Positions 24,861 to 44,683 of a stretch of 64,000 nt of DNA are shown piece by piece. The translations under genes were made by a program, and so were the position numbers. Numbering within the stretch: the first letter of the stretch is position 1; each line of letters starts with the position of its first letter. Below the pieces are notes generated by a model, which was not told the DNA's origin, searched no databases, and saw only the letters and a list, made by a program, of their open reading frames with translations. Origin of the DNA: an uncultured Melioribacter sp. (lineage in GTDB: Bacteria > Bacteroidota > Ignavibacteria > Kapaibacteriales > Kapaibacteriaceae); assembly GCA_964484755.1 (NCBI GenBank), contig CAZAGH010000002.1, forward strand, positions 24,783-88,782, in the 5' to 3' direction.

Positions 24861-27028
24861 ACGAGCCCCTTACGCTTGCGCAGGAACCACTCGAGCGAGA
24901 ATGCTACGAGGGCTGCTGCCACGAACCACGGGAGGTGATACAAGGCGTGCTCCCGGTCAGAGGTGCGAACTATCGGGCGCAAGCGACTATCGTTCTTGAG
25001 CTTTTCAAGCAGTGACTCCACGTCGGCAGCTGGTGCGTATGCACCACCTGTTCTTTGTGCGAGTAATTGTAAAAGTCCACTATTTAACGTTAGTGCCGAC
25101 TCTTCGATACTTCCCTTACCTACGGTAAAACGGCCATTATCAGAGCCCAACTGCACTCCCCTTCGCGTAGCAGTTCCCTTGTACGCGTAATCTCCCGGTG
25201 GAAGGGAACCAATCGAAGCTGCATACTGTCCACCACCAAGGCTTGAGAACACAATGCGCCGTGTTCCGCTTGGCCCTGTGATGTCAACTGAAACCTCAGC
25301 ATCATCAACTACGGACAGTGTTTGATCAAGCACTGAGGCACTGAAACTGATCGTTTCACCAGCAGCGTAAAAATCATGAGAACTTCGGATGCGAATACGG
25401 TCATCGTCATCTTTAACGCTGAGCCACTTGACAGTGTTACCAATAAAGGACTGCAGGACGTCATCGACACTCGAACCGCGAGATACTGCCGGCCCCTGTC
25501 CAAGCAGCTTCCAGCGATAGAGTCCGTAACCAAGGATCGCTAAGGATCGTACCCCACCGCGCTCACTCTTGATGATAAGGGGCTCATCAATCGACGCAGA
25601 TCCTACCTTGAGGTCAGCAAGTACGGTAGCATTTTGTAAAGGTTCTACGAACAGCTCTGTGCGATAAATTGGCGGAAGCTGATTCCATGTATCAACGTCT
25701 GACTCCTCACCTCGAATCTTCATGACAGGATCGGCAGATGCTCGAGCAGAAACATCGGGCACTACGAGAATCTCCTGAGCTCTGTTGCTGCGAACCGCAA
25801 ACGGAATGGCGTCCTGGAATCGTGTAAGTTTAGAGTAGTCCGTCTGGAAAGATGGGATGAACAGCAATGACGTGCGCTTAGCCTTTTCTGCTAGTCGTTC
25901 AAGAGCATCATTGGAAGATCCTGCTGTTGGGTAGCCAATCAAAACGATTGCCTGAACCTCTTGCAAGGAAGCTGCATCAATTGGACCTTCATAAAACGAA
26001 ACAGCATCACGCTGAATGCGTGTAACAACCTCAACTGTTGGGTCATATTCTAAGGCCGACTTAACGAACGTGACATCTGGACTGGCAGCGCCTGCCACGA
26101 GAAGGATTTTACGTTTATTTTTTTGCACACGGACAAACGACTGAGCGATGTTATTCGCACGCGTAAACTCCTGCTGTTGTGTAACGAACTCAGCAGTAAG
26201 CTTATGTATTCCATCGGACGTTGGCGTCCACGTAAACGAAACCCGACGTGATGCAGGACCTCGTGTTAACAGCACCTGCTGCCGCGCGACCACCGTATTG
26301 TTATCCTTCAGGACTACCTCTGCACTGCCATCGACCATACCGTTGTATTCGAGATCAACGATAATTGGCATTGGCTGCTGCACGATCGCAACTCCTCGAG
26401 AGTACAAACCAACCACGCGTGCATCACTCGGAGCTACGGTATCGCCTACACCGATGGTGTACAATCCAAGGCCAGTCTTTTCTGCAACGTAGACAGGTTG
26501 CTCGCCTGAGTTGTAGTTGCCGTCTGTAACAAGGACCATGGCCGCATAACGTACATTCTCTGTTGTGTTACCAACGAACCGTATAGCCTTGCCAATATCC
26601 GAGCGAAATCCATTCAATCGGAGAGAATCGACAGTACCCAGTGTAAAGGGGCGAACCTGCTGGTCAAAGACGAGAACATCTGCCTTGTCACCAAGATTTT
26701 GTGTGATTTTCGAATAGAGCTCCTTGACAACTGCACTACGATCAACGCTGCGATCCTTCATTGCCATTGAGCGTGAGACATCTATCGCAATTGCAATCCG
26801 AGGCTCAACAGTATCGGATTGCCGAATACGCAGTAGTGGCTCAAACAGGGTAAACAACAACAGTGCAAGGCCAATCGCACGCAGAACTGCAAGCAGTCCT
26901 CGATCGCCTGAGGAAAGAGCTGGAGTTGTTCTTCTGTAACTAAACCATGCAACAGCCGAAGCAATGATGGTTAAAACGAGGTACATCCACCATGAACCAG
27001 CACCAAATGCAAATCGAAGTGATTCCAT
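24857..27028 (-). CDS. membrane-anchored von Willebrand factor A (VWA) domain protein, BatA-like but greatly extended
   Basis: Two N-terminal TM helices, then a VWA MIDAS motif (IAIDVSRSMAM) and a ~450-aa extracytoplasmic region. A C-terminal TM (LPWFVAAALVAFSLEWFL) is followed by a basic tail. Confidence 0.55.
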   Translation of the reverse strand: MESLRFAFGAGSWWMYLVLTIIASAVAWFSYRRTTPALSSGDRGLLAVLRAIGLALLLFTLFEPLLRIRQSDTVEPRIAIAIDVSRSMAMKDRSVDRSAVVKELYSKITQNLGDKADVLVFDQQVRPFTLGTVDSLRLNGFRSDIGKAIRFVGNTTENVRYAAMVLVTDGNYNSGEQPVYVAEKTGLGLYTIGVGDTVAPSDARVVGLYSRGVAIVQQPMPIIVDLEYNGMVDGSAEVVLKDNNTVVARQQVLLTRGPASRRVSFTWTPTSDGIHKLTAEFVTQQQEFTRANNIAQSFVRVQKNKRKILLVAGAASPDVTFVKSALEYDPTVEVVTRIQRDAVSFYEGPIDAASLQEVQAIVLIGYPTAGSSNDALERLAEKAKRTSLLFIPSFQTDYSKLTRFQDAIPFAVRSNRAQEILVVPDVSARASADPVMKIRGEESDVDTWNQLPPIYRTELFVEPLQNATVLADLKVGSASIDEPLIIKSERGGVRSLAILGYGLYRWKLLGQGPAVSRGSSVDDVLQSFIGNTVKWLSVKDDDDRIRIRSSHDFYAAGETISFSASVLDQTLSVVDDAEVSVDITGPSGTRRIVFSSLGGGQYAASIGSLPPGDYAYKGTATRRGVQLGSDNGRFTVGKGSIEESALTLNSGLLQLLAQRTGGAYAPAADVESLLEKLKNDSRLRPIVRTSDREHALYHLPWFVAAALVAFSLEWFLRKRKGLV

Positions 27029-27037
27029 AGCCGGACA

Positions 27038-27769
27038 TTACCTCAAGGAGGAAGGGGCAAGAACGAGGATGCTCTGTGCCACCAATAGACTCGTGGTGAA
27101 AAAGAAGGCTACCTCTTCCCACGGGAGAACACTCGCAACATATACACCCGTGATCTGTGAGGAATCAAAAAACCATATTCCCTTCCGTACCGCCCAGACA
27201 TCGGCAATCGAGAGGATCCCACCAATTGCGATGGTCGAGATAGCAATCTCCGGGATGCGAGCGATCAAAATGTTGTACCCAAACATCCACTGCAACACGA
27301 TCACTGGCAGAAACCAATAAAACAAGTGCCAGGCATAGCTTAGGTACCGTCGGTTTGCACGCCACTGTTTTGAGAGCAAACCAGCGGTTAACCATAGTGC
27401 AATGAAGAGCCCCATGACCATCAGATTACTCTGAGAAAAGTCCACATCAGCGACCCGATCAAGAGGCCGAAGAGCACACAGAGACATCGTGAGGAAGGTA
27501 ACCTGAAGGGTTTGAAGCACAAAAAAAGCAATCTCCTCGATGGGTAAACGGTCGATCCTGAACAGTAGACGATCGTCTGGGAAATCCCAGAGTCGCCTAT
27601 GGACGGCCCAGTTATCCCACGGAAAGGTAAAGACAATGACGACCACACAGAGCGCGAATATCGGCAAGGCAATGGGTGCCTCTGGCCCGACAAACATCCA
27701 GAGCCCGGCACAGAGAACAAGCAGGGGCAATGTCACCCGGTAATGGAAACCGCGATAGGTCATGGTCAC
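27038..27769 (-). CDS. lycopene cyclase domain protein, fused two-repeat CrtYcd type
   Basis: Polytopic membrane protein with two copies of the PxEE-xFF lycopene-cyclase-domain signature (LPIEEIAFFVL and LPWEEVAFFFT). Confidence 0.55.
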   Translation of the reverse strand: MTMTYRGFHYRVTLPLLVLCAGLWMFVGPEAPIALPIFALCVVVIVFTFPWDNWAVHRRLWDFPDDRLLFRIDRLPIEEIAFFVLQTLQVTFLTMSLCALRPLDRVADVDFSQSNLMVMGLFIALWLTAGLLSKQWRANRRYLSYAWHLFYWFLPVIVLQWMFGYNILIARIPEIAISTIAIGGILSIADVWAVRKGIWFFDSSQITGVYVASVLPWEEVAFFFTTSLLVAQSILVLAPSSLR

Positions 27770-28713
27770 AGCGCCGAAGACACGGAAAGACGGTGCAGAA
27801 CGGCAGAGGCTCCGAGCACGTTCAGTGCATAATCGACATTCAACAGTGTAGTACGGATTCCAAGCCCTGCACTGAAACCGCTCAATTGGGTCGACACACT
27901 CACCGCAGACGTGTTGCGAAGGGAGTTGTCATAGGCAACGCGGAATTGCACGTATTTGCCAACGTAGAACTCGCCACCGATGCTGAAGTTTGAGAACCGT
28001 GATGCAAAGTCTTCGACGTCGTCGGTAAGATGATTGAACGATGCATTGATAAGAAGTGGAAGACCACGTAATCGATGATTGATACCTATACGCATGTCTA
28101 CTGGCAAGCGATCGCTGGTGCCGTCATAGGTTGAGAGTTGTGTTCCGAGATTGACGATGCTGATTCCGATGTTTGTTCGTTTAGCCGGAAAACGGAACAA
28201 CAAACCAGCATCTAATGCAATCGCGGTTGAACGCATATCGGTGAGCGACGAGTGCAGGATTTTTCCCGTTACGCCATACGCGATCAGAGTGTCGAATTCC
28301 TTTGCATAGGAAACACCCAGCGAGACATCAGAGGCAGTAAAGCTACCAGTAATCGTACCATCGATTGTCGATCGCGAAAAATCACCGTAGTTGGCGTATC
28401 CAATTGTGATGGCACCCATGCCGTCTGCAATGTCAGTAGAGTATGTCAGCAGTCCTGCATTGATATCCAAGACATGCTTGATAAACGTACCGTGAATGTT
28501 TGAAGAATCAGTTGTGGCCAGTCCTGCGGGATTCACAACTACGTTATTGGCGTCTCCCACGAGAGCGACCGTAGAGCCCCCTAGCGCGGCTGCTCTGCTG
28601 CTAATGAGGCTGCGCATGAAAGGGAAAATCGATGCCTGCTGTGCTTGCAGATCTACAGAAGCAGAAATGAGTGCTGCAACAACGACGACCAGGGGGATGT
28701 ACGATTTGATCAT
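27766..28713 (-). CDS. porQ: type IX secretion outer-membrane beta-barrel, PorQ/PorV family
   Basis: Signal peptide, then the family-typical start ...AAALGGSTVALVGDANNVVVNPAGLA... (compare PorV/PorQ ALGGAxxAxxxDAxAxxWNPAGL). Sequence is beta-strand-rich; 315 aa. Confidence 0.55.
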   Translation of the reverse strand: MIKSYIPLVVVVAALISASVDLQAQQASIFPFMRSLISSRAAALGGSTVALVGDANNVVVNPAGLATTDSSNIHGTFIKHVLDINAGLLTYSTDIADGMGAITIGYANYGDFSRSTIDGTITGSFTASDVSLGVSYAKEFDTLIAYGVTGKILHSSLTDMRSTAIALDAGLLFRFPAKRTNIGISIVNLGTQLSTYDGTSDRLPVDMRIGINHRLRGLPLLINASFNHLTDDVEDFASRFSNFSIGGEFYVGKYVQFRVAYDNSLRNTSAVSVSTQLSGFSAGLGIRTTLLNVDYALNVLGASAVLHRLSVSSAL

Positions 28714-31012: not shown

Positions 31013-34000
31013 CTACCTGCCGCCAGAGATCGAAAGACGGATGTCAAGTCCAACCTGGGTTGTACTGAATCCTGGATTTGCCGCGCCCTCACTGAAATTG
31101 CCCTCATACTTGACAAATGCCGAGGCAGTCACCCGATTGCTAATGGTATACTTTGCCCGAGGTTCGATCACGATCTGTGTGGTTCCGTCTACAACGGCGC
31201 CACCTGGTCCCTTGTAGTCGAGGATGTCATATTGGGCACGGCGATTTCTTCGCACTTGGGTGTTGAGCGTGATCTCCAGATCATTCTTTAGGTCCATTCC
31301 AAAAAGCTTCAGCGGAACTGCCCTACGCAGATACGAGGCCTGCAGCTGGAATTCGTGCGACGTCTCGAGTGAGATGACGCTTCGAGCCGAGGCATTAAAT
31401 CCATGCGTATTCGTAACGCTGTACCGGCCCGTTGCCGTTAACACACCCTCAAGTTTTCGCTCATCGAATGACAGGTTAATGCCCACCAAGGGGGAGAAAC
31501 CTGACTTTACTTGCTGAACCTCTATGAACCGTCCGTTGTCATTTATACGGGCATTCTCGGTGTACGTCGACTGATACGCATGCTCAAGAAACACACGTTG
31601 TGCGAGCCCCTTGAAGAGTGGAAACTTTTCTAATCCATCCCAGCGGAATGTCCAGTTTACACCGGGAAGAACCCTTCCAAGCTCTCCCGAAAAGAACTGC
31701 CATGATTCAAATCCCTCGCGGAATGAGGTAGAAAGTGCATCCAGAAGCTGTGCACTGCGAGTAGCCGTGTCGCTGGTGGCCTCAATGGCAGCCTTACGCT
31801 CATTGTACAAGCGGACTACTGTCTCGACATTGTCGTCTGATAAACCGAACGGTAGACTTGAGAAACTGACAAACGTTCGGTCGAGTGTTTGACGCTTGTT
31901 GACGTTTGAGAATGTAGGAACTCCAAGAGCATCTGTTTGTAGACGTTGATTCCTACTGAAACCAAGGTCGGTCTTCATCGTAAGATCCAGTGTTGCCCCC
32001 GGCCAAAGGGTCCTGTTTGTCTGGAATTGGAAGTTCGATTTCTGTGCGTAGTCATCCTGCATAACAGCGTTGGCTGGACGAACACCAGGGCCCGTTTCGA
32101 AACGGAAGAACGGGAACGATGGTGATGAGACCATCTTCAGCTCGCCATGAGGATCAGGGATAAGTCCGAGTTGATACGCTGTATTCGGACCATTCGCAGT
32201 GAGATTATCTCGGAACAGGAGTGATCTTCCCCAGAGATTCGAAAAGCCTGATTCACCAAGAATACCGCGGTTCACAGCGTTGGTGCTTTGATTTAAGGTC
32301 AACGTGAAGTTTTCAAAACCGAAGAAGATGTCTTGTATCACCCTGCCGATTGAGGAGTCGCCTTTAGCAGGAGTGCCAAAGATCTCGTTACCAAACTGAC
32401 GCCATTTCCATACTGGACTTAACCGAAAGTTCGACGTGTACTTACCTTCTCGAACGACATCACGCTGAGCCGGATCGGTCTGCAGTGGGTCGACAAGATT
32501 GTAGACCACATTGTAGGATCCAGTGGTTTCAAGCAGTCTGTTCAGGCCAAAGACATCGGGAAGACGGGGCTTAAAGGAAAGCGTAATCGTTTGATTGTAG
32601 TTGCTGACCGCCCCGAGGTTCAACAGGCCGCCGCCTGGATTGAATATCTGACTGGAGAGCTGGCTGGCGGTGCGCTGACGACCGTTCTCATCAAGTTCAA
32701 AGGGCACAAGCGTCGACATCGAAGCGACTTTGTAATCCAGTACGGGGCTAAGTAAGCTGTTTTCAACAAGTCGCCAGTTGAAGCCGAACATCTTGTCGGC
32801 CATGAACTCACGAATGATTGGACTAGGCTGCAACAAGAATCGGGATTGCTCAGTAATGCGGGCGCGCGTCATATTGAGACTCGCGTTGATGGTCTGCGGC
32901 AGCAGGTTGATTTTTGTGTCCTTATAGGCTCGCAGACCCCATGTGTTCCCTATCCATGTCCAGGGCTGGAATGAAAGCTTACCAGGTAACGTAAGAGCAT
33001 AGTCAACTTTGAATCTCCATCTCCAGTCGAACTTATGCTGAACAACCTGCGATCGCTCAAACTCCTGTGCGTATGAGAAGTTGAACGTCAGTTTGTTAAA
33101 GATATCGTCGACGTACCATGCTTTGACTGGAATTCCGAGACGAACGCCATTGAGCGCCCATTGATCTTGCACTCGCACTCGTTGCGAACGCTGGCGAACC
33201 TGCTGAGCAACCTGCTGGGCAACCTCCGGAGTTGCTCCTTTTTGCAAGGTATCACTCGAGGCAGCATTGGCTGCCGCATCTAACTCTACGTCGTTCTGTG
33301 CCTGAAACTGAGGTGTTTCTGAAATCTCTGCGTGCGTATAGCTGATTGGAATACGAGTATCCTTCATGGCCTTGGGCAGAAGCTTCTCGGCACCCACTTG
33401 CACCGTTGTGGTCCATGTGGTACTCTGAACACGGTTTCCATATCGCTCTTCGAGTCTATGGAAGTTCGGTGTCGAATGATTCACCGCGGATGTGATCTCA
33501 CCGATATCGGCCAGCTTTAACGTGGCGTTACCAATGGCCGCCCAGTCATTGTCTGCCGTTGGATCTACAACCCGCAATTCATCGATCCACATGGTCGTAG
33601 ATAGTTCATTCGGGAACCGTTCTTTCGGATTTGCAAGTCCAAATCCAAAGAACGACACCCTTGTCATGATAGGGTTGCCTTTAATGGCAAAGCTCGCATC
33701 AGGATCACCCGGAACAGGGAACTCCTGACGTTGATCTGTTCGACTTCGATCTCGTGTTTCTTTCAGTGCAGTAATGTCTGCAATCTTGATGCGCAGATCC
33801 TGCCAGCCCCGTAACAGAGGCCTTCTGTACTCGTAATAGTTGGCCGAATCCACACCAAAACGGATGAAGCAATATGCTGGTGGTACCGAGCCAGGCGTCA
33901 CAGTGCTAGGCATCGTGTTGTCGCCGTGAATGAAGAAAGCGACTTCTTTGTAGTAGAACAGATCCCACGGCCGGAAGATCCGAGCTGCGAATCGCTCTTC

Positions 34001-37000
34001 CCCTGCACGAAGGCTGCGGGATCGAACAACCAACGACTGTTCGTTGAGATAAAGCTGCTGATATGGATCAGGATTCTGAAGCTGCTGCGGTGGTGTTACG
34101 CCCGGCGGCATAGTGTAGTAATCCGGGGCATCTTGGTTTTCTTCGCGGTTAACGTAGGCTACCTGAAGCACTGTGTCGGTCTGTTCGACATTTGGTTGGA
34201 ACTGGTGGTTCCTAAGCCAGAATGATCCAACAAGACCCCAGTCGGCAATGGCTACCTTAACAACTCCGCCCTGAAAATGGATACGAGCATACTGCACGTT
34301 GGTAAACAATGGGTTCCCCACAACCGTATCCGGTCTGCGCACTGGAATACGAAACTGGTACCATCCTGTGGCCGGATTACCACCAACGATCTGTGGATTG
34401 GTGGCCGGATTGGGATTGAGATTTACCTCGTAACGGAAATAGCTGTTATCGAGAGAGATAGTCTGACCATTGTTTCTGTTCAGGATTTCCGTGTCAGGGA
34501 ACTGCCCCATTTCTGATTGTGTGGCATTGCCCTCAAAGTTGTTGTACCTACGGAACTGATCTTCGGTCTGATTCTGTCGATCAGCGGTAAAGTTGAACTG
34601 GTAATCATCTCGCGCGGGGTCAGCCTCTTCGCTGAGCGGGAATGGATACACCAGCTTTTCGCCGGCATTATCCAGGTTGTCGATTCCCAAGTCTTCCCCT
34701 TCGTCGATGAGGTTGTTCGCAGGGGGCTGATCTTCCGTGTTCAAGCGCTGGTTGGGTATCACGTCTTCGCTAATCTGCCCTAGATCGATGTACATCTTCG
34801 ATCCTGGTTCGAAGCCGTCAATGCGCATCATAACTTCAATGAAGTCAATGTTTTCGTTGTCGAAGTTGGTATTGAACGGCGAAAGTAGCCGCATCATACC
34901 ACCCCAGACTTTCTGACGATTATCACGCTGGAAACGCTGGGCTTGTTCGCGGACGGCATTACTGTCCGGACCGTTCCAGGTTGGATTCTGATTGTCAACA
35001 AACTCAGGGTTTGCGTTGTAGATGCCCCGTTCATCGGGGATGAATGTGATGCGAATCGGATTGATATTGTTGCGACCCTGAACGTTGGCACGATTCGGAT
35101 AGACATCCAATTGCGGCACATCCGGCACAAAGCGCTGATACCAGAACATCTTACCACGATAACTCGAGGCAGTTGTATCGTCCTGCCACAACGTTGAATC
35201 TTTTGCTGCTGATGAATGCAACCACAAGGTTGGCGTCAAGCCAAACGAAAGATATCTGCGCGCACTTTCAAAGTCGTCCACGTATGCAACAGACTTCAGC
35301 ATGTCGCTGGCAACAGTCGACACACGCTTGTTTGGTGTGGGAGATACCATGGCCCATTCGCCGTTGATGGCGAACGTTGACTTTTCCTTGGTGTCGATGA
35401 ACGGCAACGCGTTGAGCGCACGAGTTAGCCATGGAAGCTCCGCATTAAGTTTGGCATCAAAACCAAACATCAGGTTCGCATTTGGCTCCTGGCCAGGTAG
35501 AACTCGGTCTACGATTGCGGCCTGGTCGTAATTCATCAATGTCATACCAACAGAACTCGTAATGCGTCGTTTGTTCAGCAACAACATGTCGGCGCGCACA
35601 CCTAAGAGCGTACGAGTTGTTAGGTTAAAGATGTCGTTCTGCTCATACTCAATGTTCAGATTGGCATTCGGAAGCAGCGCGCGCTGATTCAGTAGAGACA
35701 GTGTTCCGGTGTAGTAATCAACCGTAAAATCAACTCCCTCGCGAAGCTGCATACCATCAAGCGTTACACGCACACTACCGGGAGAGAGCTGATATGCCAG
35801 TGGAATTCGACTCCCTGTCATGGTTCCCATCGCCTCACCAACGATCAGGAAACGATCCTTGGCGCTCACCAAACGAGCAGCAATTTCCGTTGTATCGTAT
35901 ACCTCGTTAAAAACATACTGTTCGGCCAGTTGAGCGTTACCCTTGGATGCAAAGTACTCGCGCAGACCATCACGGAAAGGCTCAAGGCTTGGGAAGGTAA
36001 TCTCACCACGCTGGGCATTAAACACCGGCTGGCGGGCATCGAACTGTCCATCGGCAGGGGGCACACCCGTTCCATTATTCACCTGGTCGATACGAAAGAT
36101 CGTCATGATCTTATCTGGTGCACCTTCGAGAACATCAGTCGAGTCGTTCGTTTGCCGGTAATACCACATGCCGATCTTGGCTTCCTGTGGATTGATGTTC
36201 GGAACACCGATGTTATATCTGTTCCGCATCATACGCTTCCAGAGCGTTTTGAAGCCTGGCTGCATTTGCGGACGGGCAACAAGCTTTAAAATGAGGGTAT
36301 CGCGCTCGTTGGCATTTGTTGTTAACGTGCCATAGTACTGGTCATCCGCGTTGTCAGTGGTTGGCCCCTCGGTGCGGTAGCTTACGGCATAGTACCGGTC
36401 ATTACGAATGTTCAGAATAGTTAACGTGCCAAGGTTGAGATCTACCTCGTAGCGTTTGGGATCGAGCCTTACGAAACGGCCACGCTCAACAATACCTGCT
36501 TTGATCTCCTGATTCCGAAGCGCTGGATCATAGCGCTCCCCTTGCGCATAGTTGATGGGCTTGAGATCTGCAATAGCCACGGCTTCGCTGGCCTGCACCT
36601 CCTTGAGATCGGTCGTCGACTCCCATACTTCGATATCACCCTTGACGACAAGAGACGCCCCCTCAATAGGAAGAACCGGGGTAACCGACTTGTGATATGC
36701 ACGCCAAACAGCAAAGTATGCCGTATCAAGGAAGAAGTGGTTCTTTGCGTAATCATATGCCCGTATCGAGAACTGCTGCCGGGATGCACCACCGCGAGCA
36801 TTGATGAATCGTCGCTCTGCCCGACGCTGCGATGCGATGGTCTTGAGAAACAATGGACCGAACTGGAAGTCAGCCCGTATGCCGAACAGAGTTTGTCCAC
36901 CACCAATCAGCGAGCTCTGAGTTTCAAGGTTAACGTTGCCAAACTCGACCTTCTTGATGATATCATCGTCATAGCCATCGAAGCCAACCTTGAAACGGTT

Positions 37001-37789
37001 GTTGAACTCAAACTGGTTCAATGTGTTCCAGTCAACGTTCATTTTGAACTTATCACCAATACGGCCGCTTACATTGACCTGGATGTTCTGATTGAACACT
37101 GGTGCAGACTGTGATTGCCCCACGATCGAAGCTGTTCCAAGAGCTTGAGAGTCCCATCGCCAACCAGCAGTTACGTTCACCTCACCGTTCACGGTGATCG
37201 AAATCTCTGGTTTACCGAATATGCTGCTGAAAAGAGCACTTTGTGGAAGCGGTATCGTAATGTTCGTGGCCTGGTCAAGAAGCTTTGTGAGTTCGGCCTC
37301 TGAGAGCGGTTTCTTGAGTTCGTACTTTGCCAGTGAACTATCACGAAGTTTATGCAGGATTTGTTCCCGTCTGAGCTTGAAGTACTCATCGAGCGACATC
37401 GGCGTTATCGTGCCAACATCTACGCCTTCGATCAACTCGTACAGTCTGATAGTTGACAGAGTGCTGTCTACCGAGCCGGCCTGCGAGAAACCTTTTGGAG
37501 TGGTACCATAACGATCCGGCTGCTGCGGACGGGAAAGCCCCCTTCTGTTGAGGAGTGTGCTGGGGTAGTAAAATGGAAGATCTGTGTTGGTGGGATCGCC
37601 TATACCCACAGGGCCCATATTCTTCTTTGTGCTATCGGCAAGCGTTGAGTCTGCACGCAACAGCACGCCCCAAGCGAACATCTCGGCCGGCAGCACAAGC
37701 TCGGCCCCTTCGAGAGGTTGCAGGAATACGAGGCACAGCCCTAACAGGGCAAGGCATGTTCGTACTGTGTGGGCGAACACGATGGGCAA
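31013..37789 (-). CDS. sprA: type IX secretion system translocon SprA (Sov)
   Basis: 2258-aa single ORF with an N-terminal signal peptide and a very large beta-rich protein. The size and composition are unique to SprA. Plus-strand ORFs inside it are antisense artefacts. Confidence 0.85.
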   Translation of the reverse strand: MPIVFAHTVRTCLALLGLCLVFLQPLEGAELVLPAEMFAWGVLLRADSTLADSTKKNMGPVGIGDPTNTDLPFYYPSTLLNRRGLSRPQQPDRYGTTPKGFSQAGSVDSTLSTIRLYELIEGVDVGTITPMSLDEYFKLRREQILHKLRDSSLAKYELKKPLSEAELTKLLDQATNITIPLPQSALFSSIFGKPEISITVNGEVNVTAGWRWDSQALGTASIVGQSQSAPVFNQNIQVNVSGRIGDKFKMNVDWNTLNQFEFNNRFKVGFDGYDDDIIKKVEFGNVNLETQSSLIGGGQTLFGIRADFQFGPLFLKTIASQRRAERRFINARGGASRQQFSIRAYDYAKNHFFLDTAYFAVWRAYHKSVTPVLPIEGASLVVKGDIEVWESTTDLKEVQASEAVAIADLKPINYAQGERYDPALRNQEIKAGIVERGRFVRLDPKRYEVDLNLGTLTILNIRNDRYYAVSYRTEGPTTDNADDQYYGTLTTNANERDTLILKLVARPQMQPGFKTLWKRMMRNRYNIGVPNINPQEAKIGMWYYRQTNDSTDVLEGAPDKIMTIFRIDQVNNGTGVPPADGQFDARQPVFNAQRGEITFPSLEPFRDGLREYFASKGNAQLAEQYVFNEVYDTTEIAARLVSAKDRFLIVGEAMGTMTGSRIPLAYQLSPGSVRVTLDGMQLREGVDFTVDYYTGTLSLLNQRALLPNANLNIEYEQNDIFNLTTRTLLGVRADMLLLNKRRITSSVGMTLMNYDQAAIVDRVLPGQEPNANLMFGFDAKLNAELPWLTRALNALPFIDTKEKSTFAINGEWAMVSPTPNKRVSTVASDMLKSVAYVDDFESARRYLSFGLTPTLWLHSSAAKDSTLWQDDTTASSYRGKMFWYQRFVPDVPQLDVYPNRANVQGRNNINPIRITFIPDERGIYNANPEFVDNQNPTWNGPDSNAVREQAQRFQRDNRQKVWGGMMRLLSPFNTNFDNENIDFIEVMMRIDGFEPGSKMYIDLGQISEDVIPNQRLNTEDQPPANNLIDEGEDLGIDNLDNAGEKLVYPFPLSEEADPARDDYQFNFTADRQNQTEDQFRRYNNFEGNATQSEMGQFPDTEILNRNNGQTISLDNSYFRYEVNLNPNPATNPQIVGGNPATGWYQFRIPVRRPDTVVGNPLFTNVQYARIHFQGGVVKVAIADWGLVGSFWLRNHQFQPNVEQTDTVLQVAYVNREENQDAPDYYTMPPGVTPPQQLQNPDPYQQLYLNEQSLVVRSRSLRAGEERFAARIFRPWDLFYYKEVAFFIHGDNTMPSTVTPGSVPPAYCFIRFGVDSANYYEYRRPLLRGWQDLRIKIADITALKETRDRSRTDQRQEFPVPGDPDASFAIKGNPIMTRVSFFGFGLANPKERFPNELSTTMWIDELRVVDPTADNDWAAIGNATLKLADIGEITSAVNHSTPNFHRLEERYGNRVQSTTWTTTVQVGAEKLLPKAMKDTRIPISYTHAEISETPQFQAQNDVELDAAANAASSDTLQKGATPEVAQQVAQQVRQRSQRVRVQDQWALNGVRLGIPVKAWYVDDIFNKLTFNFSYAQEFERSQVVQHKFDWRWRFKVDYALTLPGKLSFQPWTWIGNTWGLRAYKDTKINLLPQTINASLNMTRARITEQSRFLLQPSPIIREFMADKMFGFNWRLVENSLLSPVLDYKVASMSTLVPFELDENGRQRTASQLSSQIFNPGGGLLNLGAVSNYNQTITLSFKPRLPDVFGLNRLLETTGSYNVVYNLVDPLQTDPAQRDVVREGKYTSNFRLSPVWKWRQFGNEIFGTPAKGDSSIGRVIQDIFFGFENFTLTLNQSTNAVNRGILGESGFSNLWGRSLLFRDNLTANGPNTAYQLGLIPDPHGELKMVSSPSFPFFRFETGPGVRPANAVMQDDYAQKSNFQFQTNRTLWPGATLDLTMKTDLGFSRNQRLQTDALGVPTFSNVNKRQTLDRTFVSFSSLPFGLSDDNVETVVRLYNERKAAIEATSDTATRSAQLLDALSTSFREGFESWQFFSGELGRVLPGVNWTFRWDGLEKFPLFKGLAQRVFLEHAYQSTYTENARINDNGRFIEVQQVKSGFSPLVGINLSFDERKLEGVLTATGRYSVTNTHGFNASARSVISLETSHEFQLQASYLRRAVPLKLFGMDLKNDLEITLNTQVRRNRRAQYDILDYKGPGGAVVDGTTQIVIEPRAKYTISNRVTASAFVKYEGNFSEGAANPGFSTTQVGLDIRLSISGGR

Positions 37790-37925
37790 CTCACCTATTC
37801 CTAAAGTTTACCGAAACAGCAGACTTCGGTCATCGAAGCAGCAAAACCACGTAGCAAATGGCGAGAATACCCCACTCCATGAAACTCCCTAATGCGCAAA
37901 GATAACGGCTGGTTAGTTTTGTACG

Positions 37926-40559
37926 TTGCAGAAATGCACGAACGAGCTTCTTTCCTATTGCAAACCGATTATGCGACAACCTATACGACTGTTGTTACAA
38001 CTTCTCATTCTTGTCCTTTTGTCCGCGAATGCCGTCTCTGGTGTGGGGTATGCCAATCTGACCCCCGACCAGTACGCTTCGTTCATTTCCAATGACACAC
38101 GCAAGGTCTATGACTTGAGTGGTTCGTGGCAAATCATCGAAGATGGTAAACCCGTTGCTGCCCTCAGTGTTCCAAGTCATATCCTTGGACGTGACTACGT
38201 GAAGCTGCGCAAGACGGTCAAGATGGAGCAAGCCGCGATTCTTTCACATACGTGGCATCTTCATCTGCTCGGAGCCGTTGAAGAAGTCGAGCTCTTCGTT
38301 AATGGACGCTACATCATGCGTTATCCCGGTGGAATGGCCCCATTCATGATCAGGGTACCTGATGGACTCTTGCAAGCCGGACAAAACACGATTGAACTTG
38401 GAATCTCAAGACTAACAGGCCTCACCTACCGCATTCAGCGCAACGCTCGTGCTTCGTCGGTGCAGCGGATGGGGCTCCTGCGAGAAGTCTTCTTGATTGG
38501 CACTCCGCATGTATGGACGGAGGACATACAGGTTCGCTCCTCTGTGCGTTCAGGAGTCGGCACTATTAACGTGAAGGCTCGAATCAAGAGTGGACTTGTT
38601 GAGAATATCGTTCGTCAGCAGGTCTCCGACGGATTATCCGTAGGCAGTGCAACAGTGCAAGTCGAGGCAATACTGATCGACCGTGCAAGTAAGCAGGTTA
38701 TCGCCCGCTCGGGCTCTCGCTCTCTCAGCATCGCGAGGTCTCGTGAGGTAAGCCTTCCATTTACGCTCAATGTCTATAATCCAAATCAGTGGACGCTATC
38801 CAACCCGCACCTATATGAGTTGGTGGTTCGCGTAGACCACAACGGGACACTACTCGATACCTACACACGCAACTTTGGTTTCCGCACTGTTTCGATTACA
38901 ACGATTGATGGAGTTCGTCGGTTTACACTCAATGACTCCGTGATTCGCCTGCACTCAATCGACTATATCGAAGACTATCCAGTCCTCGGTGCTTCGATGT
39001 CCTACGGACAATTCCGCCGCGACGTTTCCATGCTAAAGACGCTCGGTGTCAATGCCATTCGGATACGGCATAGTGTTCCCCATCCAGTCCTGCTCGACCT
39101 TTGTGACCAATATGGCATCATGGTCATGGTTGAGGCCCCTCTTGCTGACGTTCCGACGTCAATGCTGAAGAACGACGAAGTAGTTACACGATATCGCAAT
39201 GCGGCAGAGCGCATAAGTCTCTACGTTGAGTCGCACCCATCAGTGATGGCCGTTGGTATTAGTGATGGCCTTGATGAAGCATCGGCAGCTGTGCCGGAAT
39301 ATCATCGTCAGGTATTGCAGGTCTTCCGAAAGCAAACGAGCAAGCAACTGTACAAGGTAGTGCCTTCCTCGCTGCTGAATTCAACTAGTGAAGGGGGCTT
39401 TGACTTCATCGTTATTAAGTTCTATTCTCCCTCCGACAGCACAGTATTCACGACACTTCGGCAGGATGTTGCCCGAATGTTCCGGAGCGCTGCCGTGCTT
39501 GCCGAATTCGGCACTGCGATTTCGCCGGTCAACCTGAATGGGTTTAGCGATGCTTTGTCTAACGAAGCCCAGGCATTAAATATCAGCAAGTTCTATAACT
39601 GGTCATTTTCTGCTGGTCTTGCCGGTGTGGTTGTATGGTCGTTCAATGATTACACCCTCGATCGTCCAACAATGCTCGTTGACCATTTCGACTCGCACAT
39701 CTCAACAAGTGGACTGGTAGATGTGTATCGACAGCGCCGAGTTGCCTATGATGTCTACAAAGCGCTCATCAACGATGAAAAGCTTCCACTTCTACAGGCC
39801 CGTGACAACGTGTTTACTACACCGTTTGTGTTCATTATTGCTGGTCTGCTGCTGGCACTCGCCATTGCATTTACTGCTAACCAGTCGCGTCGATTCCGCG
39901 AGTATGTTATCCGTGCCGTGCTACGTCCGTATAATTTTTACTCTGACATTCGTGATCAGAGAATTCTGTCGATCTCACAGACAACCTTACTTGCAATTGT
40001 ACTCTCCTCGAGTGTAGGTCTGGTAATGTCTTCATTCTTTTTCTTTATACGCATTGATCCAGCAGTAGAGTATCTACTACACATTCTACTTGCAAGTGAT
40101 GCTACGTATGAAGTTCTGCGATATATCTCATGGCACCCTGAGGTTGGCATCATAGCTTGGACTGTTGCTGTGCTCCTGGCATTCATCATTCTCGCTGCAT
40201 TGCTTCGCATTGGAGCGATGTTTGTGAGAGGTCGTATCTACATGCGCGATACATTCACGATTGTCGTCTGGTCGTCACTGCCGCTCCTTGCTTTGCTACC
40301 AATCGGGATCGGACTCTACCAGGCTCTATCAACAAATCAGTTGTCCGTTGTTGTGCCGCTATTGATGTTCGGCCTAGCCTTTTGGAGCATCATACGCGTA
40401 CTACGTGCAACATCCGTTGTTTTTGACGTACGATCCTCGATCGTCTACCTCCTCGGGCTTAGCGTGTTCTCCTTGATCGTGGCCACAGCTGTCATCTCAT
40501 GGAACATGTCGTACGATGGATTCGCGTTCCTTGGATACTACCTATCAGTTGTTTCGTAA
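37926..40559 (+). CDS. glycoside hydrolase family 2-like domain fused to C-terminal polytopic membrane domain
   Basis: Signal peptide (MRQPIRLLLQLLILVLLSANA, probable start near 37971). GH2 TIM-barrel signature GVNAIRIRHSVPHPVLLDLCDQYGIMVMVEAP matches LacZ NAVRCSHYPNHP...LCDRYGLYVVDEA. A nucleophile-like AVLAEFGTA motif is followed by the VWSFNDY motif. The last ~290 aa carry about 6-7 hydrophobic helices. Confidence 0.55.
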   Translation: MQKCTNELLSYCKPIMRQPIRLLLQLLILVLLSANAVSGVGYANLTPDQYASFISNDTRKVYDLSGSWQIIEDGKPVAALSVPSHILGRDYVKLRKTVKMEQAAILSHTWHLHLLGAVEEVELFVNGRYIMRYPGGMAPFMIRVPDGLLQAGQNTIELGISRLTGLTYRIQRNARASSVQRMGLLREVFLIGTPHVWTEDIQVRSSVRSGVGTINVKARIKSGLVENIVRQQVSDGLSVGSATVQVEAILIDRASKQVIARSGSRSLSIARSREVSLPFTLNVYNPNQWTLSNPHLYELVVRVDHNGTLLDTYTRNFGFRTVSITTIDGVRRFTLNDSVIRLHSIDYIEDYPVLGASMSYGQFRRDVSMLKTLGVNAIRIRHSVPHPVLLDLCDQYGIMVMVEAPLADVPTSMLKNDEVVTRYRNAAERISLYVESHPSVMAVGISDGLDEASAAVPEYHRQVLQVFRKQTSKQLYKVVPSSLLNSTSEGGFDFIVIKFYSPSDSTVFTTLRQDVARMFRSAAVLAEFGTAISPVNLNGFSDALSNEAQALNISKFYNWSFSAGLAGVVVWSFNDYTLDRPTMLVDHFDSHISTSGLVDVYRQRRVAYDVYKALINDEKLPLLQARDNVFTTPFVFIIAGLLLALAIAFTANQSRRFREYVIRAVLRPYNFYSDIRDQRILSISQTTLLAIVLSSSVGLVMSSFFFFIRIDPAVEYLLHILLASDATYEVLRYISWHPEVGIIAWTVAVLLAFIILAALLRIGAMFVRGRIYMRDTFTIVVWSSLPLLALLPIGIGLYQALSTNQLSVVVPLLMFGLAFWSIIRVLRATSVVFDVRSSIVYLLGLSVFSLIVATAVISWNMSYDGFAFLGYYLSVVS

Positions 40560-40561
40560 TA

Positions 40562-41668
40562 ATGCAGGTACATCGCACACACTCTCATCCTGAACAACGT
40601 TCTTTAACTCAGCGCGAGACCTCGATCCTCCAAGCGGTCGTGCACCTGTTCATCCTGCATGGAGTGCCCGTTGGGTCGAGGAATGTCTCAAAGTACCTAG
40701 AACGTACGCTGCCCCTCAGTCCGGCAACGGTACGTAACAGTATGATGGATCTGGAAGAGATGGGATACATTATGCATCCGCACACATCTGCTGGACGCAT
40801 TCCTACGGATAAGGGTTACCGTTTCTACGTTGATTCCCTAGCTCCAACGCCCCCTGAGATCAATGCGGCACATCTTCATCTACCAGAATTCTCCGGGGCA
40901 TCACACGAGAGTATCATCAAGGATGCCTCACGGGTGCTCAGCTCGCTGAGTCGCCATCTTGCGTTGGTTCAGATCCCACAGTTACAGAGTGCGCTTGTGC
41001 GACGGGTCGAGCTTGTTCGCCTCTCATCAGAGCGCTTGGTCGTTATCATTGATCTGGACAGCGACACTATTCGCACGATCAGTTTGGAGACAACAACACC
41101 TATCGATTATGAAATGATTGATAGTCTGTCGCGGTTTGTAAATGAAAAACTTGCTGGACGACCTCTCCACGTCATAGACTCTGTCATTTCAGAGTCCGTC
41201 GATCAATTGACGTTTGCAGACCCATCATTGCTTCGGCTGTTTATTGATCAGCTCGGTAACATCACCCGCGAACACTCCTCGGGTAGCATTCATGTAAGTG
41301 GTACCACAAATCTGATAGACCAACCGGAAAGTGCCTCTCCCGACCGCTTACGCAGTGTTATTGAACTAATTGAAAATGAGGATGTGATCGTTCACCTTCT
41401 CGGCAGTGCATCAACGGCAGATGGTGTCTCAGTCCGCATCGGCAATGAGATCACGGACGCCAATCTTGCAGACTACTCACTTATCGCCACCACATATCGC
41501 GCTGGCACTGCACAGGGATCACTTGGCATCATCGGTCCGCGTCGAATGGACTATGGTCGCATGATCTCAATCGTGCAGATGATGTCCAGCGTATTGACGA
41601 GTACATTCAATTCACCTACACCAGATGGCTCGGAAAGTCGTCTATTGACCTCGATTAGAAAGCGTTAG
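40562..41668 (+). CDS. hrcA: heat-inducible transcription repressor HrcA
   Basis: N-terminal winged HTH (RETSILQAVVHLFILHGVPVGSRNVSK) and the HrcA C-domain. An internal ATG at 40562 avoids overlap with the upstream gene. grpE and dnaJ follow. Confidence 0.8.
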   Translation: MQVHRTHSHPEQRSLTQRETSILQAVVHLFILHGVPVGSRNVSKYLERTLPLSPATVRNSMMDLEEMGYIMHPHTSAGRIPTDKGYRFYVDSLAPTPPEINAAHLHLPEFSGASHESIIKDASRVLSSLSRHLALVQIPQLQSALVRRVELVRLSSERLVVIIDLDSDTIRTISLETTTPIDYEMIDSLSRFVNEKLAGRPLHVIDSVISESVDQLTFADPSLLRLFIDQLGNITREHSSGSIHVSGTTNLIDQPESASPDRLRSVIELIENEDVIVHLLGSASTADGVSVRIGNEITDANLADYSLIATTYRAGTAQGSLGIIGPRRMDYGRMISIVQMMSSVLTSTFNSPTPDGSESRLLTSIRKR

Positions 41669-41672
41669 AACA

Positions 41673-42197
41673 ATGGAACACACAACACAACAAGAAGACA
41701 ATCACCTGGAGCAAGACCAATCTCAGCAGGAGACAACGGACCTCCATGCCGAGCTTGCCCAGTGGAAGGAGCTTGCGATACGTCGGTTAGCCGAAGTAGA
41801 GAACATCCGCCGTCGCACCAACCTTGAAAAGCAAGAATTGCTCATGCATGCTGCTCAGCATACGATCACAAAAATGCTCCCAATCCTTGATGATCTCCAT
41901 GCTGCCGTCGAGGCTTCGCGCACAACACGCGATGCGGAGTCACTGATACAGGGCATCGAGATGATCTACACAAAGACCGTCAAGATCTTTGAAGAGTCTG
42001 GCGTGCAGGCCATAGAGGCGGCATCTGGGGAGCAGTTTGATGTAGAACGCCACGAAGCTCTCATGCACACACCGTCGGAGCATCCCGAAGGCTCTGTTAT
42101 TCAAAACGTACAGCGTGGATACCTGCTGCACGATAAAGTATTGCGACATGCTAAGGTCATCACATCAGCCGGGTCTGCGGCACAGAAGGGCGAGTAA
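41673..42197 (+). CDS. grpE: nucleotide exchange factor GrpE
   Basis: Acidic N-terminus, a coiled coil ([21 protein letters not shown]), and a C-terminal beta domain. 174 aa. Confidence 0.85.
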
Positions 42198-42199
42198 GC

Positions 42200-43348
42200 A
42201 TGTCGCAACGTGATTTTTACGAGATACTTGGCGTCGAACGCGGTGCGTCAGCAGAAGAGATTAAGGGTGCCTATCGCAAGATGGCAATGAAGTACCACCC
42301 GGATCGCAACCCCGATAACGCCGAAGCCGAGGCAAAGTTTAAAGAGGCTGCCGCTGCTTACGATGTGTTAAGCGACCAGGATAAACGAGCCCGTTACGAC
42401 CAATACGGCCACGCTGGTGTTGGCGGTCAACAGGGATACCACGAGTACACCAACGTCAACGACATTTTTAGTGCTTTCGGCGACATTTTCGGACAGTCGA
42501 TCTTTGGCGACATGTTCGGTGGCCAGCAACGTGGATCTCGGCAGCGCTCTCGCAAGGAGCAAGGCGCCGATCTCAGAGTTCGCATGCCCCTTTCGCTCGA
42601 GGAGATAGCGACAGGTGTTGAAAAGACCATTAAGATCCGTCACATGAAAACATGTGGTTCGTGTTCGGGATCGGGCGCAAAGGGCAGTGGCGGCTATGCA
42701 TCCTGCAGCGCTTGCGGTGGTTCTGGCGAGGTGCGCCAGGTATCTCGCAGCGTATTCGGTCAATTCATCAACATCGCCCCTTGCGCCGCTTGCAGTGGCA
42801 ACGGCGAGATCCTGCAGGACAAGTGCGATACATGCTCGGGTGAAGGGCGTGTAGAGGGAGAAACGACCGTAAAAGTCACGATTCCAGCCGGTGTACGCAC
42901 AGGGAATTATATACCTCTCACCGGTAAGGGGCATGCAGGCCGCCGCGGTGGCCAGTCCGGTGATGCCATGGTCGTAATCGAAGAGGTCGAGCACGAGATC
43001 TTTGAACGTGAGGAAGACGACGTGCACATGCGGCACACTATTGACTTCCCTACCGCAGCCCTTGGTGGCGAAGTTGAGGTCCGCACACTGACGGGCGTGG
43101 CATCGTTGACAATCGAACCTGGCACCCAGCCCGGCAGCATTCTGCGTATGAAGGGCAAAGGGATACCCCATGTAAACCATCGTGGAACTGGGGATCAGTT
43201 GGTTCACATCGACATCTATGTGCCGACAAAGTTGAGTTCTGAAGAGCGTTCTGCGCTCCGCAAACTCTCAGGAAGCAACCACTTCAAACCTGTTGATCAA
43301 CGTCAAGCAGGAGATTTTTTCCAAAAAGTAAAAGAGGTTTTCTCGTAG
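42200..43348 (+). CDS. dnaJ: molecular chaperone DnaJ
   Basis: J domain (YHPDRNPD), a G/F-rich linker, four CxxCxGxG zinc-finger repeats, and a C-terminal domain. 382 aa. Confidence 0.9.
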
Positions 43349-43846: not shown

Positions 43847-44683
43847 ATGAACCTGACCGTGTACCTACATCCCGAGCGCCTGTTGATTGCATCATGGGCC
43901 CTCGAAGAGAATGTGCCCGTATTGCACGGATACCGGGAACTGCACCCGTATACCGAGATCAACCTTCGAGACTATGCCGTAGATCGTGTGCACGTTGTGC
44001 TTCACAGTTCAGATGTGCAGCTGCATTGGTTTCCCATCGACTTGAGCGAGGATCTTGATCAGCGCAGAGGCTTCGAAGCGTCAGCTTGGTTCAATCGCCC
44101 TGGGATGCAACCGTTGGAGTCTTCAGCATTTGCAACAGCGCTCATTTCGAGATCCACAATGCGAGCATTGGCATCCGCACAGTCCACCGTGCTTGATCGA
44201 CGCGATCACATGATAGGCCAATCTTGCATCACGGGTGTTGACCTTGATCTTGACATCCAAGCAGCCCTTGCCACGGCCTCTGCGCGACGCTCTCCATGGC
44301 TGCTTCTAGGGAGACGCTCAAACACGTGGCATGCGGTAATCATTGGCACCGAGCATCAGGCAACAGCACACGCCATGTTCCCAAATGAAGCGAATCTTGG
44401 CCATACGTCCACGGTCCACAAGATTCATCGCACCATGGAAGAACGATACGGGTGTTCACTTGATGCGCTTATGATGTTCGGAGATATGCTCACATCCGAC
44501 GATGTTGCCCAGTTACGGGATGACATCAACTTTGCCGACATCAAGGTCGCCCGTCTTCAACCGTTCAAACGTGTTCGTTCGCTTCTTGACGATGCAACAG
44601 AACAACGTCTACTGCGCCGCGCGCATGTGGTTGCTCCAATCGCGGGAACGATGTTCGCCCACACACTCGCACCGATCGACTAA
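43847..44683 (+). CDS. hypothetical protein (278 aa)
   Basis: Clean ORF between comEA and rsmD. No family recognised by eye. Confidence 0.4.
   Translation: MNLTVYLHPERLLIASWALEENVPVLHGYRELHPYTEINLRDYAVDRVHVVLHSSDVQLHWFPIDLSEDLDQRRGFEASAWFNRPGMQPLESSAFATALISRSTMRALASAQSTVLDRRDHMIGQSCITGVDLDLDIQAALATASARRSPWLLLGRRSNTWHAVIIGTEHQATAHAMFPNEANLGHTSTVHKIHRTMEERYGCSLDALMMFGDMLTSDDVAQLRDDINFADIKVARLQPFKRVRSLLDDATEQRLLRRAHVVAPIAGTMFAHTLAPID

Follow-up and report, generated by a model that had tools for sequence, protein, structure and literature searches.

Glycoside hydrolase family 2 (GH2) consists of retaining enzymes in which the acid/base glutamate belongs to an Asn-Glu (N-E) motif after strand 4 of the barrel (LacZ E461; E413 of the Escherichia coli beta-glucuronidase GUS) and the nucleophile glutamate follows strand 7 (LacZ E537; GUS E504). 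A glycosidase fold used for binding instead of hydrolysis is found in alpha-Klotho-type proteins, which are membrane-anchored, GH1-like pseudo-glycosidases that have lost a catalytic glutamate. The eukaryotic YIPF proteins of the Yip1 family possess five transmembrane (TM) helices with a cytosolic N-side and a luminal C terminus, and for the prokaryotic Yip1-domain proteins no function is reported (PMC6682643); Bacillus subtilis YknW is an accessory of an ATP-binding cassette (ABC) exporter (PMC4887032). Here, we describe a gene that joins a GH2-like module to a Yip1-like membrane domain. It lies in a 64,000-nucleotide (nt) stretch of contig CAZAGH010000002.1 (assembly GCA_964484755.1, an uncultured Melioribacter sp. 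of the Kapaibacteriaceae); this whole stretch is called the window, and coordinates refer to it unless another locus is named. On balance, we consider it fairly probable that the product is an inner-membrane, periplasm-facing housekeeping protein of the envelope, in which a pseudo-GH2 module and a Yip1-type domain serve binding or scaffolding rather than ordinary glycosidase activity.

The plus-strand open reading frame (ORF) from 37926 to 40559 is unbroken. Its mechanical start is TTG 37926, and the start conserved among relatives is ATG 37971 (MRQPIRLLLQ...). In an upstream alignment with five related loci, ATGCGACA was conserved, and the stretch from TTG 37926 to ATG 37971 was broken by a stop codon or a 1-nt indel in close relatives. 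TTG 37926 was therefore ruled out as the start, and residues are numbered from the methionine at ATG 37971 (862 amino acids [aa]). The initial annotation had allowed that the gene might be two ORFs separated by a frameshift; this was ruled out by the continuous frame and by 49 colinear homologues that represent one gene, of which 40 cover at least 96% of the query and the rest are shorter entries. The database entries of the closest homologues (P0001 to P0005; 888 aa) carry a 26-residue N-terminal extension (MRKDNGWLVLYVAEMH... or MRKDNGWLVLY...) that is a translation of conserved noncoding intergenic DNA; the same DNA (37893 to 37970 in the window) is out of frame here by a 1-nt indel, and the extension is probably a start-codon misannotation.

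The GH2 fold proposed in the initial annotation for the N-terminal part (sugar-binding, immunoglobulin [Ig]-like, and TIM-barrel domains) was recovered both by Pfam and by structure comparison, which agreed on the GH2 three-domain architecture of a jelly-roll, an Ig-like domain, and a (beta/alpha)8 barrel. Glyco_hydro_2 (PF00703, Ig-like) matched residues 219 to 305 with 47.9 bits (cutoff, 23), and Glyco_hydro_2_C (PF02836, TIM barrel) matched residues 317 to 426 with 42.3 bits (cutoff, 21), covering only profile positions 7 to 128 of 302, or the first ~40% of the model. Glyco_hydro_2_N (PF02837) scored 17.5 bits, under its cutoff of 28, and NCBIfam GH2 equivalog models gave partial matches of 34 to 119 bits against cutoffs of 544 to 2000. 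An AlphaFold2 model built from a 34-sequence family alignment (mean predicted local distance difference test [pLDDT] score, 85; predicted template modeling [pTM] score, 0.81) contained, up to residue ~600, two successive beta-sandwiches and then eight alternations of strand and helix. When the model was compared with the PDB by Foldseek, the top matches were GH2 beta-glucuronidases and beta-galacturonidases (E value of ~1e-36 over ~610 to 650 aligned columns), with residues ~40 to 600 superposing on the beta-glucuronidases. Template modeling scores were 0.74 to 0.85 when normalized to the target and ~0.55 when normalized to the query, the latter because the last ~250 residues were unmatched. 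The motifs quoted in the initial annotation were all found, namely, NAIRIRHSVPHP (361 to 372), LCDQYG (377 to 382), GLDEA (433 to 437), AEFG (511 to 514), and VWSFND (555 to 560). Ahead of the module stands a Sec-type signal peptide whose putative cleavage site was placed by the AxA rule, not computed; the model has a low-confidence segment at residues 20 to 25, behind the signal-peptide helix.

Profile alignments to the D. thermophilum GUS (6xxw) and to LacZ placed the canonical N-E on D432-G433 (39264 to 39269) and the nucleophile position on E512 of LAEFG (39504 to 39506). The protein thus has glycine where GH2 enzymes have the acid/base glutamate at the end of barrel strand 4. In GLDEA, which had been read as the acid/base position, E436 (39276 to 39278) lies three residues downstream of it. 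Among 120 nonidentical Kapabacteria-type relatives, position 433 was Gly in 112, position 436 was Glu in 117, and position 512 was Glu in 40, with S, T, H, C, N, and others in the remainder. The presence of E512 followed identity to the query: it occurred in 16/16 relatives at 70% identity or more, in 24/37 at 48 to 70%, and in 0/67 below 48%; substitutions within the window's own subclade were to H, Q, L, R, C, G, or V, and the 67 more distant relatives all had S, T, H, N, or C there. In the Ignavibacteriales clade (118 sequences), the acid/base position was occupied by D (45), Q (42), E (15), or N (6), the nucleophile position by S (51), G (23), or R (18), with Glu in 2, and the position corresponding to 436 was Ser in 111. 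Not one of the 276 aligned family members carried both canonical glutamates. The GDE, GDD, and GDQ sequences at the end of strand 4 in the Ignavibacteriales clade brought to mind a substrate-assisted D-E/D-D mechanism of the GH20/GH84 kind, which was rejected as a conserved mechanism on finding Gln or Asn at the second position in 48/118 sequences. Barrel positions of the GH2 fold type were conserved family-wide (N361, P370, P372, C378, G382, D478, G524, S530, Q534, G552, D560, and G581). With fold motifs kept and the catalytic pair not, the GH2 module is, for the family as a whole, probably a pseudo-enzyme. Since the catalytic pair is not conserved, the function under selection would not be canonical retaining hydrolysis, and the working glycosidase of the initial annotation was not supported: the acid/base glutamate is a glycine, and E512 was kept in 40/53 relatives at 48% identity or more and in none beyond.

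Hydropathy analysis revealed six hydrophobic segments beyond residue 611, in addition to the N-terminal signal-peptide-like segment, and these were long helices in the models; the count of six or seven C-terminal TM helices given at first can thus be set at six. Loops 1, 3, and 5 together held 14 lysines and arginines, against 1 in loops 2 and 4 and the C-terminal tail combined. Because of this imbalance, the positive-inside rule predicts that the GH2 module and the C terminus are periplasmic and that loops 1, 3, and 5 are cytoplasmic. The signal peptide, Pfam domains, models, and charge pattern agreed with the earlier proposal of a secreted, periplasmic GH2 module held by a polytopic membrane domain. 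Pfam Yip1 (PF04893) matched residues 650 to 840 (TM2 to TM6) with an E value of 0.006 in the full protein and 3.9e-4 in the isolated domain, and it matched 20 of 22 orthologous C-terminal domains at an E value of up to 1 (best, 7.5e-8). From this match and the charges, the Yip1 topology of five TM helices, a cytoplasmic N-side, and an exoplasmic C terminus was predicted, and the relationship to Yip1 appears distant but likely. Foldseek comparison of the isolated membrane-domain model (pLDDT, 79) with solved structures gave no significant match (best E value, 1.7), and when the PDB was searched with a sequence profile, the best 60 of 136 matches were all GH2 enzymes.

Conservation over all 276 sequences peaked in the 20-residue block 641 to 660, in the cytoplasmic loop after TM1 (RRFREY..RPYNFYxDIRDQR). 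F642, E644, R648, R652, N655, F656, D659, R661, and D662 were conserved in at least 93% of these sequences, and the 34-sequence alignment had 17 invariant columns between 641 and 667. Other near-invariant positions were W721 and P723 in periplasmic loop 2; W767, P771, and P777 in TM4; W805 and R809 in TM5; and D819 in loop 5. In the AlphaFold2 model, the pLDDT of loop 640 to 667 (62 to 76) was below that of its surroundings. High conservation combined with low model confidence would be consistent with a partner-binding segment.

A word-indexed protein search returned 49 colinear relatives, mostly full length and 33 to 91% identical, past which scores fell from 485 to 82 bits and ordinary soluble GH2 enzymes began. 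In the databases, these relatives are named "hypothetical," "beta-galactosidase," or "YIP1 family protein" and are labeled as metagenome-assembled genomes (MAGs) of Ignavibacteria or Candidatus Kapabacteria. With one genome per GTDB species, 287 stretches encoded a relative, mostly under Kapaibacterium or Ignavibacteria MAG titles, several of the bins being obviously mislabeled; the locus record titles Patescibacteria, Hyphomicrobiales, Chloroflexota, and Chitinophaga look like mislabeled Kapabacteria bins. A profile of the C-terminal domain only, run against 1.84 billion cluster representatives (50% identity clusters), matched 551 clusters at an E value of up to 1e-3 and 509 at up to 1e-10. 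The best 150 of the 551 were mostly ~800 to 900 aa long with the domain at the C terminus, the shorter ones resembling fragments, and a Pfam scan of 10 matches found GH2 domains in front in 8 and Yip1 alone in 2. A search seeded with a distant member (P0224) added a sister clade of at least 456 further clusters, labeled Ignavibacteriales or Bacteroidota and annotated as [quoted passage not shown] or "beta galactosidase jelly roll domain-containing protein." Judged by these sequence matches, the GH2-Yip1 fusion is a fixed, widespread architecture in the Kapabacteria/Ignavibacteria lineage, and it is apparently a lineage-wide housekeeping envelope gene of the sampled Kapabacteria and Ignavibacteriales MAGs. 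Two contigs of MAG CAYXKK01 (L010 and L036) each carry a copy, 53% and 55% identical to the query; these are either paralogues or a product of mixed binning. In the literature searched, we found no description of the GH2-Yip1 fusion, of its catalytic-pair loss, or of its function.

Table 1. Features of the fusion gene and its surroundings (window coordinates, except for the last row, which gives positions in the named loci)
Feature	Position	Strand	Basis
Coding sequence of the GH2-like/Yip1-like fusion protein	37971..40559	+	862 aa plus stop; ATGCGACA start kept in close relatives
Sec-type signal peptide, residues 1-22 (putative), MRQPIR-LLLQLLILVLLS-ANA	37971..38036	+	Hydropathy peak at residues 4-30; AlphaFold2 helix 2-19
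Jelly-roll "sugar-binding" domain, residues ~40-180	38088..38510	+	Weak Glyco_hydro_2_N; beta-strands in model; Foldseek GH2 coverage
Ig-like GH2 domain, residues ~181-305	38511..38885	+	PF00703; AlphaFold2 model; Foldseek
(beta/alpha)8 barrel with degenerate active site, residues ~317-600	38919..39770	+	Partial PF02836; eight alternations; 6xxw and LacZ alignments; column statistics
TM1, residues 612-639, joining periplasmic module to cytoplasmic loop (predicted)	39804..39887	+	Hydropathy, AlphaFold2, charge
Arginine-rich cytoplasmic loop RRFREYVIRAVLRPYNFYSDIRDQRILS, residues 640-667	39888..39971	+	Contains the most conserved 20-residue stretch family-wide; 7 K+R
Yip1-like five-helix domain (TM2-TM6, residues 668-846) and short periplasmic tail	39972..40556	+	Weak Pfam Yip1; model helices
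sprA (outer-membrane translocon of the type IX secretion system), divergent neighbor	31013..37780	-	TIGR04189, 893 bits; Pfam SprA_N
Conserved noncoding block of ~60 nt in presumed sprA leader, core ...CGTAGCAAATGGCGAGAATACCCCACTCC.TG...	37837..37896	-	Lies between sprA -7 box and sprA start
Promoter-like -7 box TATCTTTG (TAnnTTTG type), towards sprA	37897..37904	-	Pattern match
Promoter-like -7 box TAGTTTTG, towards fusion gene	37914..37921	+	Pattern match; 9 nt from sprA box
hrcA, followed by grpE and dnaJ	40564..41668 (hrcA); 40564..43348 (all three genes)	+	TIGR00331, 288 bits
Ignavibacteriales loci	L081 8001-14200; L082 7001-13092; L083 7001-13215; L084 3738-9952; L085 7001-13245		

The fusion gene lies between sprA, which encodes a component of the type IX secretion system (T9SS), and the heat-shock genes hrcA, grpE, and dnaJ (Table 1). 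The likely start of sprA, GTG 37780, stands behind an AGGTGAG Shine-Dalgarno-like sequence, and ATG or GTG was conserved there in the upstream alignment; the divergent arrangement with sprA that had been noted earlier is borne out by the TIGR04189 match and by the back-to-back -7-type boxes described below. On the other side, hrcA most likely starts at ATG 40564, 4 nt past the stop of the fusion gene. A pattern scan of the gap between them found no TAnnTTTG box, and the fusion gene is probably cotranscribed with hrcA-grpE-dnaJ. Eighty loci were fetched for synteny counts. In 40/80, sprA was divergently upstream, nearly all of these having hrcA-grpE-dnaJ immediately downstream; where the contig reached far enough, the sprA-linked loci were those with a protein at least 43% identical to the query, plus the distantly related L059 and L060 (34% protein identity), which retained sprA alone. 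Of 38 distant Kapabacteria loci, 36 lacked the adjacency, as did the four genomes of the Ignavibacteriales clade that were looked up.

In one distant clade (7 loci), BipA, RecA, a monofunctional peptidoglycan transglycosylase, glutamine synthetase III, and a DegT aminotransferase were encoded upstream and a T9SS-sorting-domain protein, GT2 and GT9 (heptosyltransferase family) glycosyltransferases, and a short-chain dehydrogenase/reductase were encoded downstream. Another (~10 loci) had an ADH+Gfo/Idh/MocA oxidoreductase upstream and purC, a RodA/FtsW-like gene, and pdxA downstream. In the Ignavibacteriales (five contigs, four proteins), the order was glgP (divergent), fusion gene, smc, HAD phosphatase, PEMT-like methyltransferase, lpxB, and lpxK; L081 has sucC-tpiA in place of glgP and ends before lpxB and lpxK, and L082 to L085 include both. 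The stop of the fusion gene overlaps the smc start in this clade (translational coupling), and in the public protein P0188 the orthologue and smc are fused by read-through. The gene therefore sits among core genes, with cell-envelope neighbors that are recurrent, not exclusive, and no single partner kept family-wide. The remaining window DNA is ordinary housekeeping (parA, parB, dnaE, a SurA-like peptidyl-prolyl isomerase, lon, uvrC, pheS, and MiaB-type enzymes). Four sizeable ORFs in it had no Pfam match at the thresholds used, at 24857 to 27028 (-), 27766 to 28713 (-), 43847 to 44683 (+), and 55542 to 57515 (-), encoding 723, 315, 278, and 657 aa, respectively. For the 828-aa ORF at 13469 to 15955 (-), an N-terminal PIG-L (GlcNAc de-N-acetylase) domain was the sole one recognized, with ~650 residues unassigned.

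A divergent control region of ~140 bp shared with sprA had been proposed. The shared region is reasonable, and its length was revised: ~140 bp is the ORF-to-ORF distance, and the interval from GTG 37780 to ATG 37971 is ~190 bp. TAnnTTTG is the Bacteroidota-type -7 consensus, known from Bacteroides and Flavobacterium promoters, and the interval contains one such box in each direction. In 14/14 aligned loci (~52 to 91% protein identity), CAAAGATA on the sprA side and GTTA.TTTTG on the fusion-gene side were invariant. Over the window, TAnnTTTG was not overrepresented (18 matches versus 23 expected), and by our reading, ~11 of the 18 matches were correctly oriented and lay no more than 50 nt ahead of an ORF; position and orientation support promoter use here. 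With the boxes back to back, the upstream region of each promoter lies inside the other transcription unit. Elsewhere in the window, TAnnTTTG matches occurred 5 to 13 nt ahead of a start codon (e.g., 2047, 6312, 10302, 20023, 45252, and 49101), a spacing that suggests leaderless or very-short-leader mRNAs.

The ~60-nt block that separates the sprA start from its -7 box was near-invariant in 6 loci with proteins 76 to 91% identical and was 73 to 79% identical over 73 to 87 nt in 10 loci with proteins ~52 to 54% identical, making it more conserved than the flanking coding DNA; besides the window, the loci with this block were L002, L003, L021, L007, L009, L012 to L016, L026, L030, and L034. Rfam gave no match to the intergenic block at the gathering threshold or at an E value of up to 10, and the consensus RNA fold of the block was unconvincing (-5 kcal/mol, with covariation in one terminal helix only). 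A small minus-strand upstream ORF in the block (MEWGILAICYVVLLLR) was rejected on the loss of its ATG in the more distant loci. The block may be a regulator binding site or an sprA leader element. No inverted repeats were found in the intergenic region, and a sigma-70 consensus scan yielded nothing over the shuffled expectation. A scan of the full 64 kb for the CIRCE/HrcA operator, allowing up to 3 mismatches, gave no match, and half-sites were at chance level; the HrcA operator here may differ from the classical consensus or sit elsewhere, e.g., at groES or dnaK.

These neighborhoods, together with the GH2 fold, raise alternatives to a binding protein. A working membrane-anchored periplasmic beta-glycosidase of the beta-glucuronidase/beta-galactosidase type, trimming imported or envelope oligosaccharides with E512 as the nucleophile and E436 as a relocated acid/base, would fit the complete GH2 fold, the many structural motifs kept, the near-invariance of E436 in Kapabacteria-type relatives, and the retention of E512 in all of the closest relatives and in most of those at 48 to 70% identity. 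It would have to accommodate a glycine as the canonical acid/base, loss of the Asn of the N-E motif, substitution of E512 inside the subclade and in every more distant relative, replacement of E436 by Ser in nearly all of the Ignavibacteriales clade, and a Pfam TIM-barrel match that ends well short of the profile end. In addition, the column of H367, aligned by eye with LacZ H391, is variable, and the glucuronide N-K motif is apparently lacking (eye alignment only). We regard an active glycosidase as quite unlikely.

The two readings drawn from the neighbors are, in our judgment, improbable. In one, the protein would be a T9SS accessory coregulated with SprA from the shared divergent promoter region, such as an inner-membrane or periplasmic handler of glycosylated cargo; the pairing with sprA in half of the 80 loci, including the distant L059 and L060, the invariant boxes 9 nt apart, the highly conserved intergenic block, and the T9SS C-terminal-sorting-domain protein adjoining the gene in another clade are in line with this. 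The adjacency is clade-restricted, however, and with parA-parB following sprA the region resembles conserved housekeeping synteny; Pfam and NCBIfam gave no match of the fusion protein to a known T9SS component, so that neither homology nor consistent colocalization ties it to the system, and the T9SS connection implied by the initial annotation is weak. In the other, the gene would be the first of an hrcA-grpE-dnaJ transcript and connect the chaperone regulon with the state of the periplasm or membrane as a member of a heat-shock or envelope-stress operon. The 4-nt spacing to hrcA, the lack of a -7 box between the two genes, and the order gene-hrcA-grpE-dnaJ in 40/80 loci would be expected on that account; the loss of the linkage in most distant Kapabacteria loci, where the family persists, smc downstream in the Ignavibacteriales clade, and the negative CIRCE scan would not. 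Such a role has little probability in our view.

We therefore return to a periplasm-facing pseudo-GH2 protein with a Yip1-type domain. In the mechanism that we propose, a cleavable signal peptide would export the ~590-residue N-terminal module, folded like a complete GH2 enzyme, and TM1 would tether it to the membrane; the arginine-rich invariant cytoplasmic loop would come next, followed by the Yip1-type five-helix bundle and a periplasmic C terminus. The pseudo-GH2 module would bind a glycan of the envelope or a partner in the periplasm or outer membrane, and the Yip1-like domain and the cytoplasmic loop would couple this binding to a membrane or cytoplasmic partner, the protein acting as a scaffold, a receptor, or a transporter accessory. 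Of the two roles in the initial annotation, glycosidase or glycan-binding module, a putative glycan-binding module is thus the better half. We infer an envelope role because envelope neighbors recur by clade, namely, sprA; DegT, GT2, GT9, peptidoglycan transglycosylase, RodA/FtsW-like, and ADH+Gfo/Idh/MocA oxidoreductase genes; and lpxB-lpxK. Three observations weigh against this interpretation. The window protein does have Glu at the nucleophile position along with the near-invariant E436, as do 25/276 relatives, and E512 and E436 could provide residual or noncanonical activity in the window's subclade. The Yip1 score was 16.9 bits for the full protein and 20.8 for the isolated domain, both under the gathering score of 28.6. 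Finally, the neighbors are mostly generic housekeeping genes (parAB, smc, hrcA, purC, and recA), so that the envelope link is weak guilt by association. A more specific form, which we put forward tentatively as an unlikely case, casts the family as "Klotho-like" transmembrane receptors or transport accessories of bacteria, in which a dead GH2 module, possibly oligomerizing as GH2 enzymes do, would recognize a glycan of the envelope (for example, lipopolysaccharide core, lipid A sugars, or peptidoglycan) and would gate or signal through the assembled Yip1-type bundle and the RPYNFYxDIRDQR loop. If true, this would be the first mechanism assigned to a prokaryotic Yip1 domain.

Each half of the protein can be assigned to a known superfamily, and public annotations refer to just one of the two. 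Labels such as "beta-galactosidase," "beta-glucuronidase," and [quoted passage not shown] would inflate the carbohydrate-degrading capacity ascribed to Kapabacteria and Ignavibacteria in metagenome surveys; because the catalytic pair is missing across the family, it should not be counted as carbohydrate degrading. Since the fusion is widespread in the sampled Kapabacteria and Ignavibacteriales MAGs, it probably has a part in some basic process of the envelope in both of these little-studied lineages. Moreover, a Yip1 domain permanently fused to a recognizable periplasmic fold and an invariant cytoplasmic loop offers an experimental handle on prokaryotic Yip1 domains. In relation to described systems, the N-terminal module shares with GH2 enzymes (PDB 8dhe, 6jz6, 5uj6, 6xxw, and 1dp0) the same three-domain fold and order and the motifs NAxR..HP, LCDxYG, xEFG, SxExQ, and WxFxD, but it differs from them in having Gly as the acid/base, a nucleophile Glu that is not conserved among orthologues, no member examined with both, and a six-helix membrane domain that none of the matched GH2 structures has. 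The membrane domain resembles the Yip1 family (PF04893; eukaryotic YIPF and prokaryotic "YIP1 family proteins" such as B. subtilis YknW) in its five helices, cytoplasmic N-side, and short far-side C terminus and in a profile similarity that is weak but family-wide; unlike that family, it falls under the Pfam gathering threshold, is preceded by one additional TM helix and the ~590-residue periplasmic pseudo-GH2 module, and comes with an invariant loop motif of its own, RPYNFYxDIRDQR. The likeness to alpha-Klotho is one of analogy only, in that both are tethered glycosidase folds minus a catalytic glutamate, used for binding in alpha-Klotho and putatively so here; alpha-Klotho is GH1 and not GH2, belongs to another kingdom, has a single-pass rather than a polytopic anchor, and bears no sequence relationship to the protein described here.

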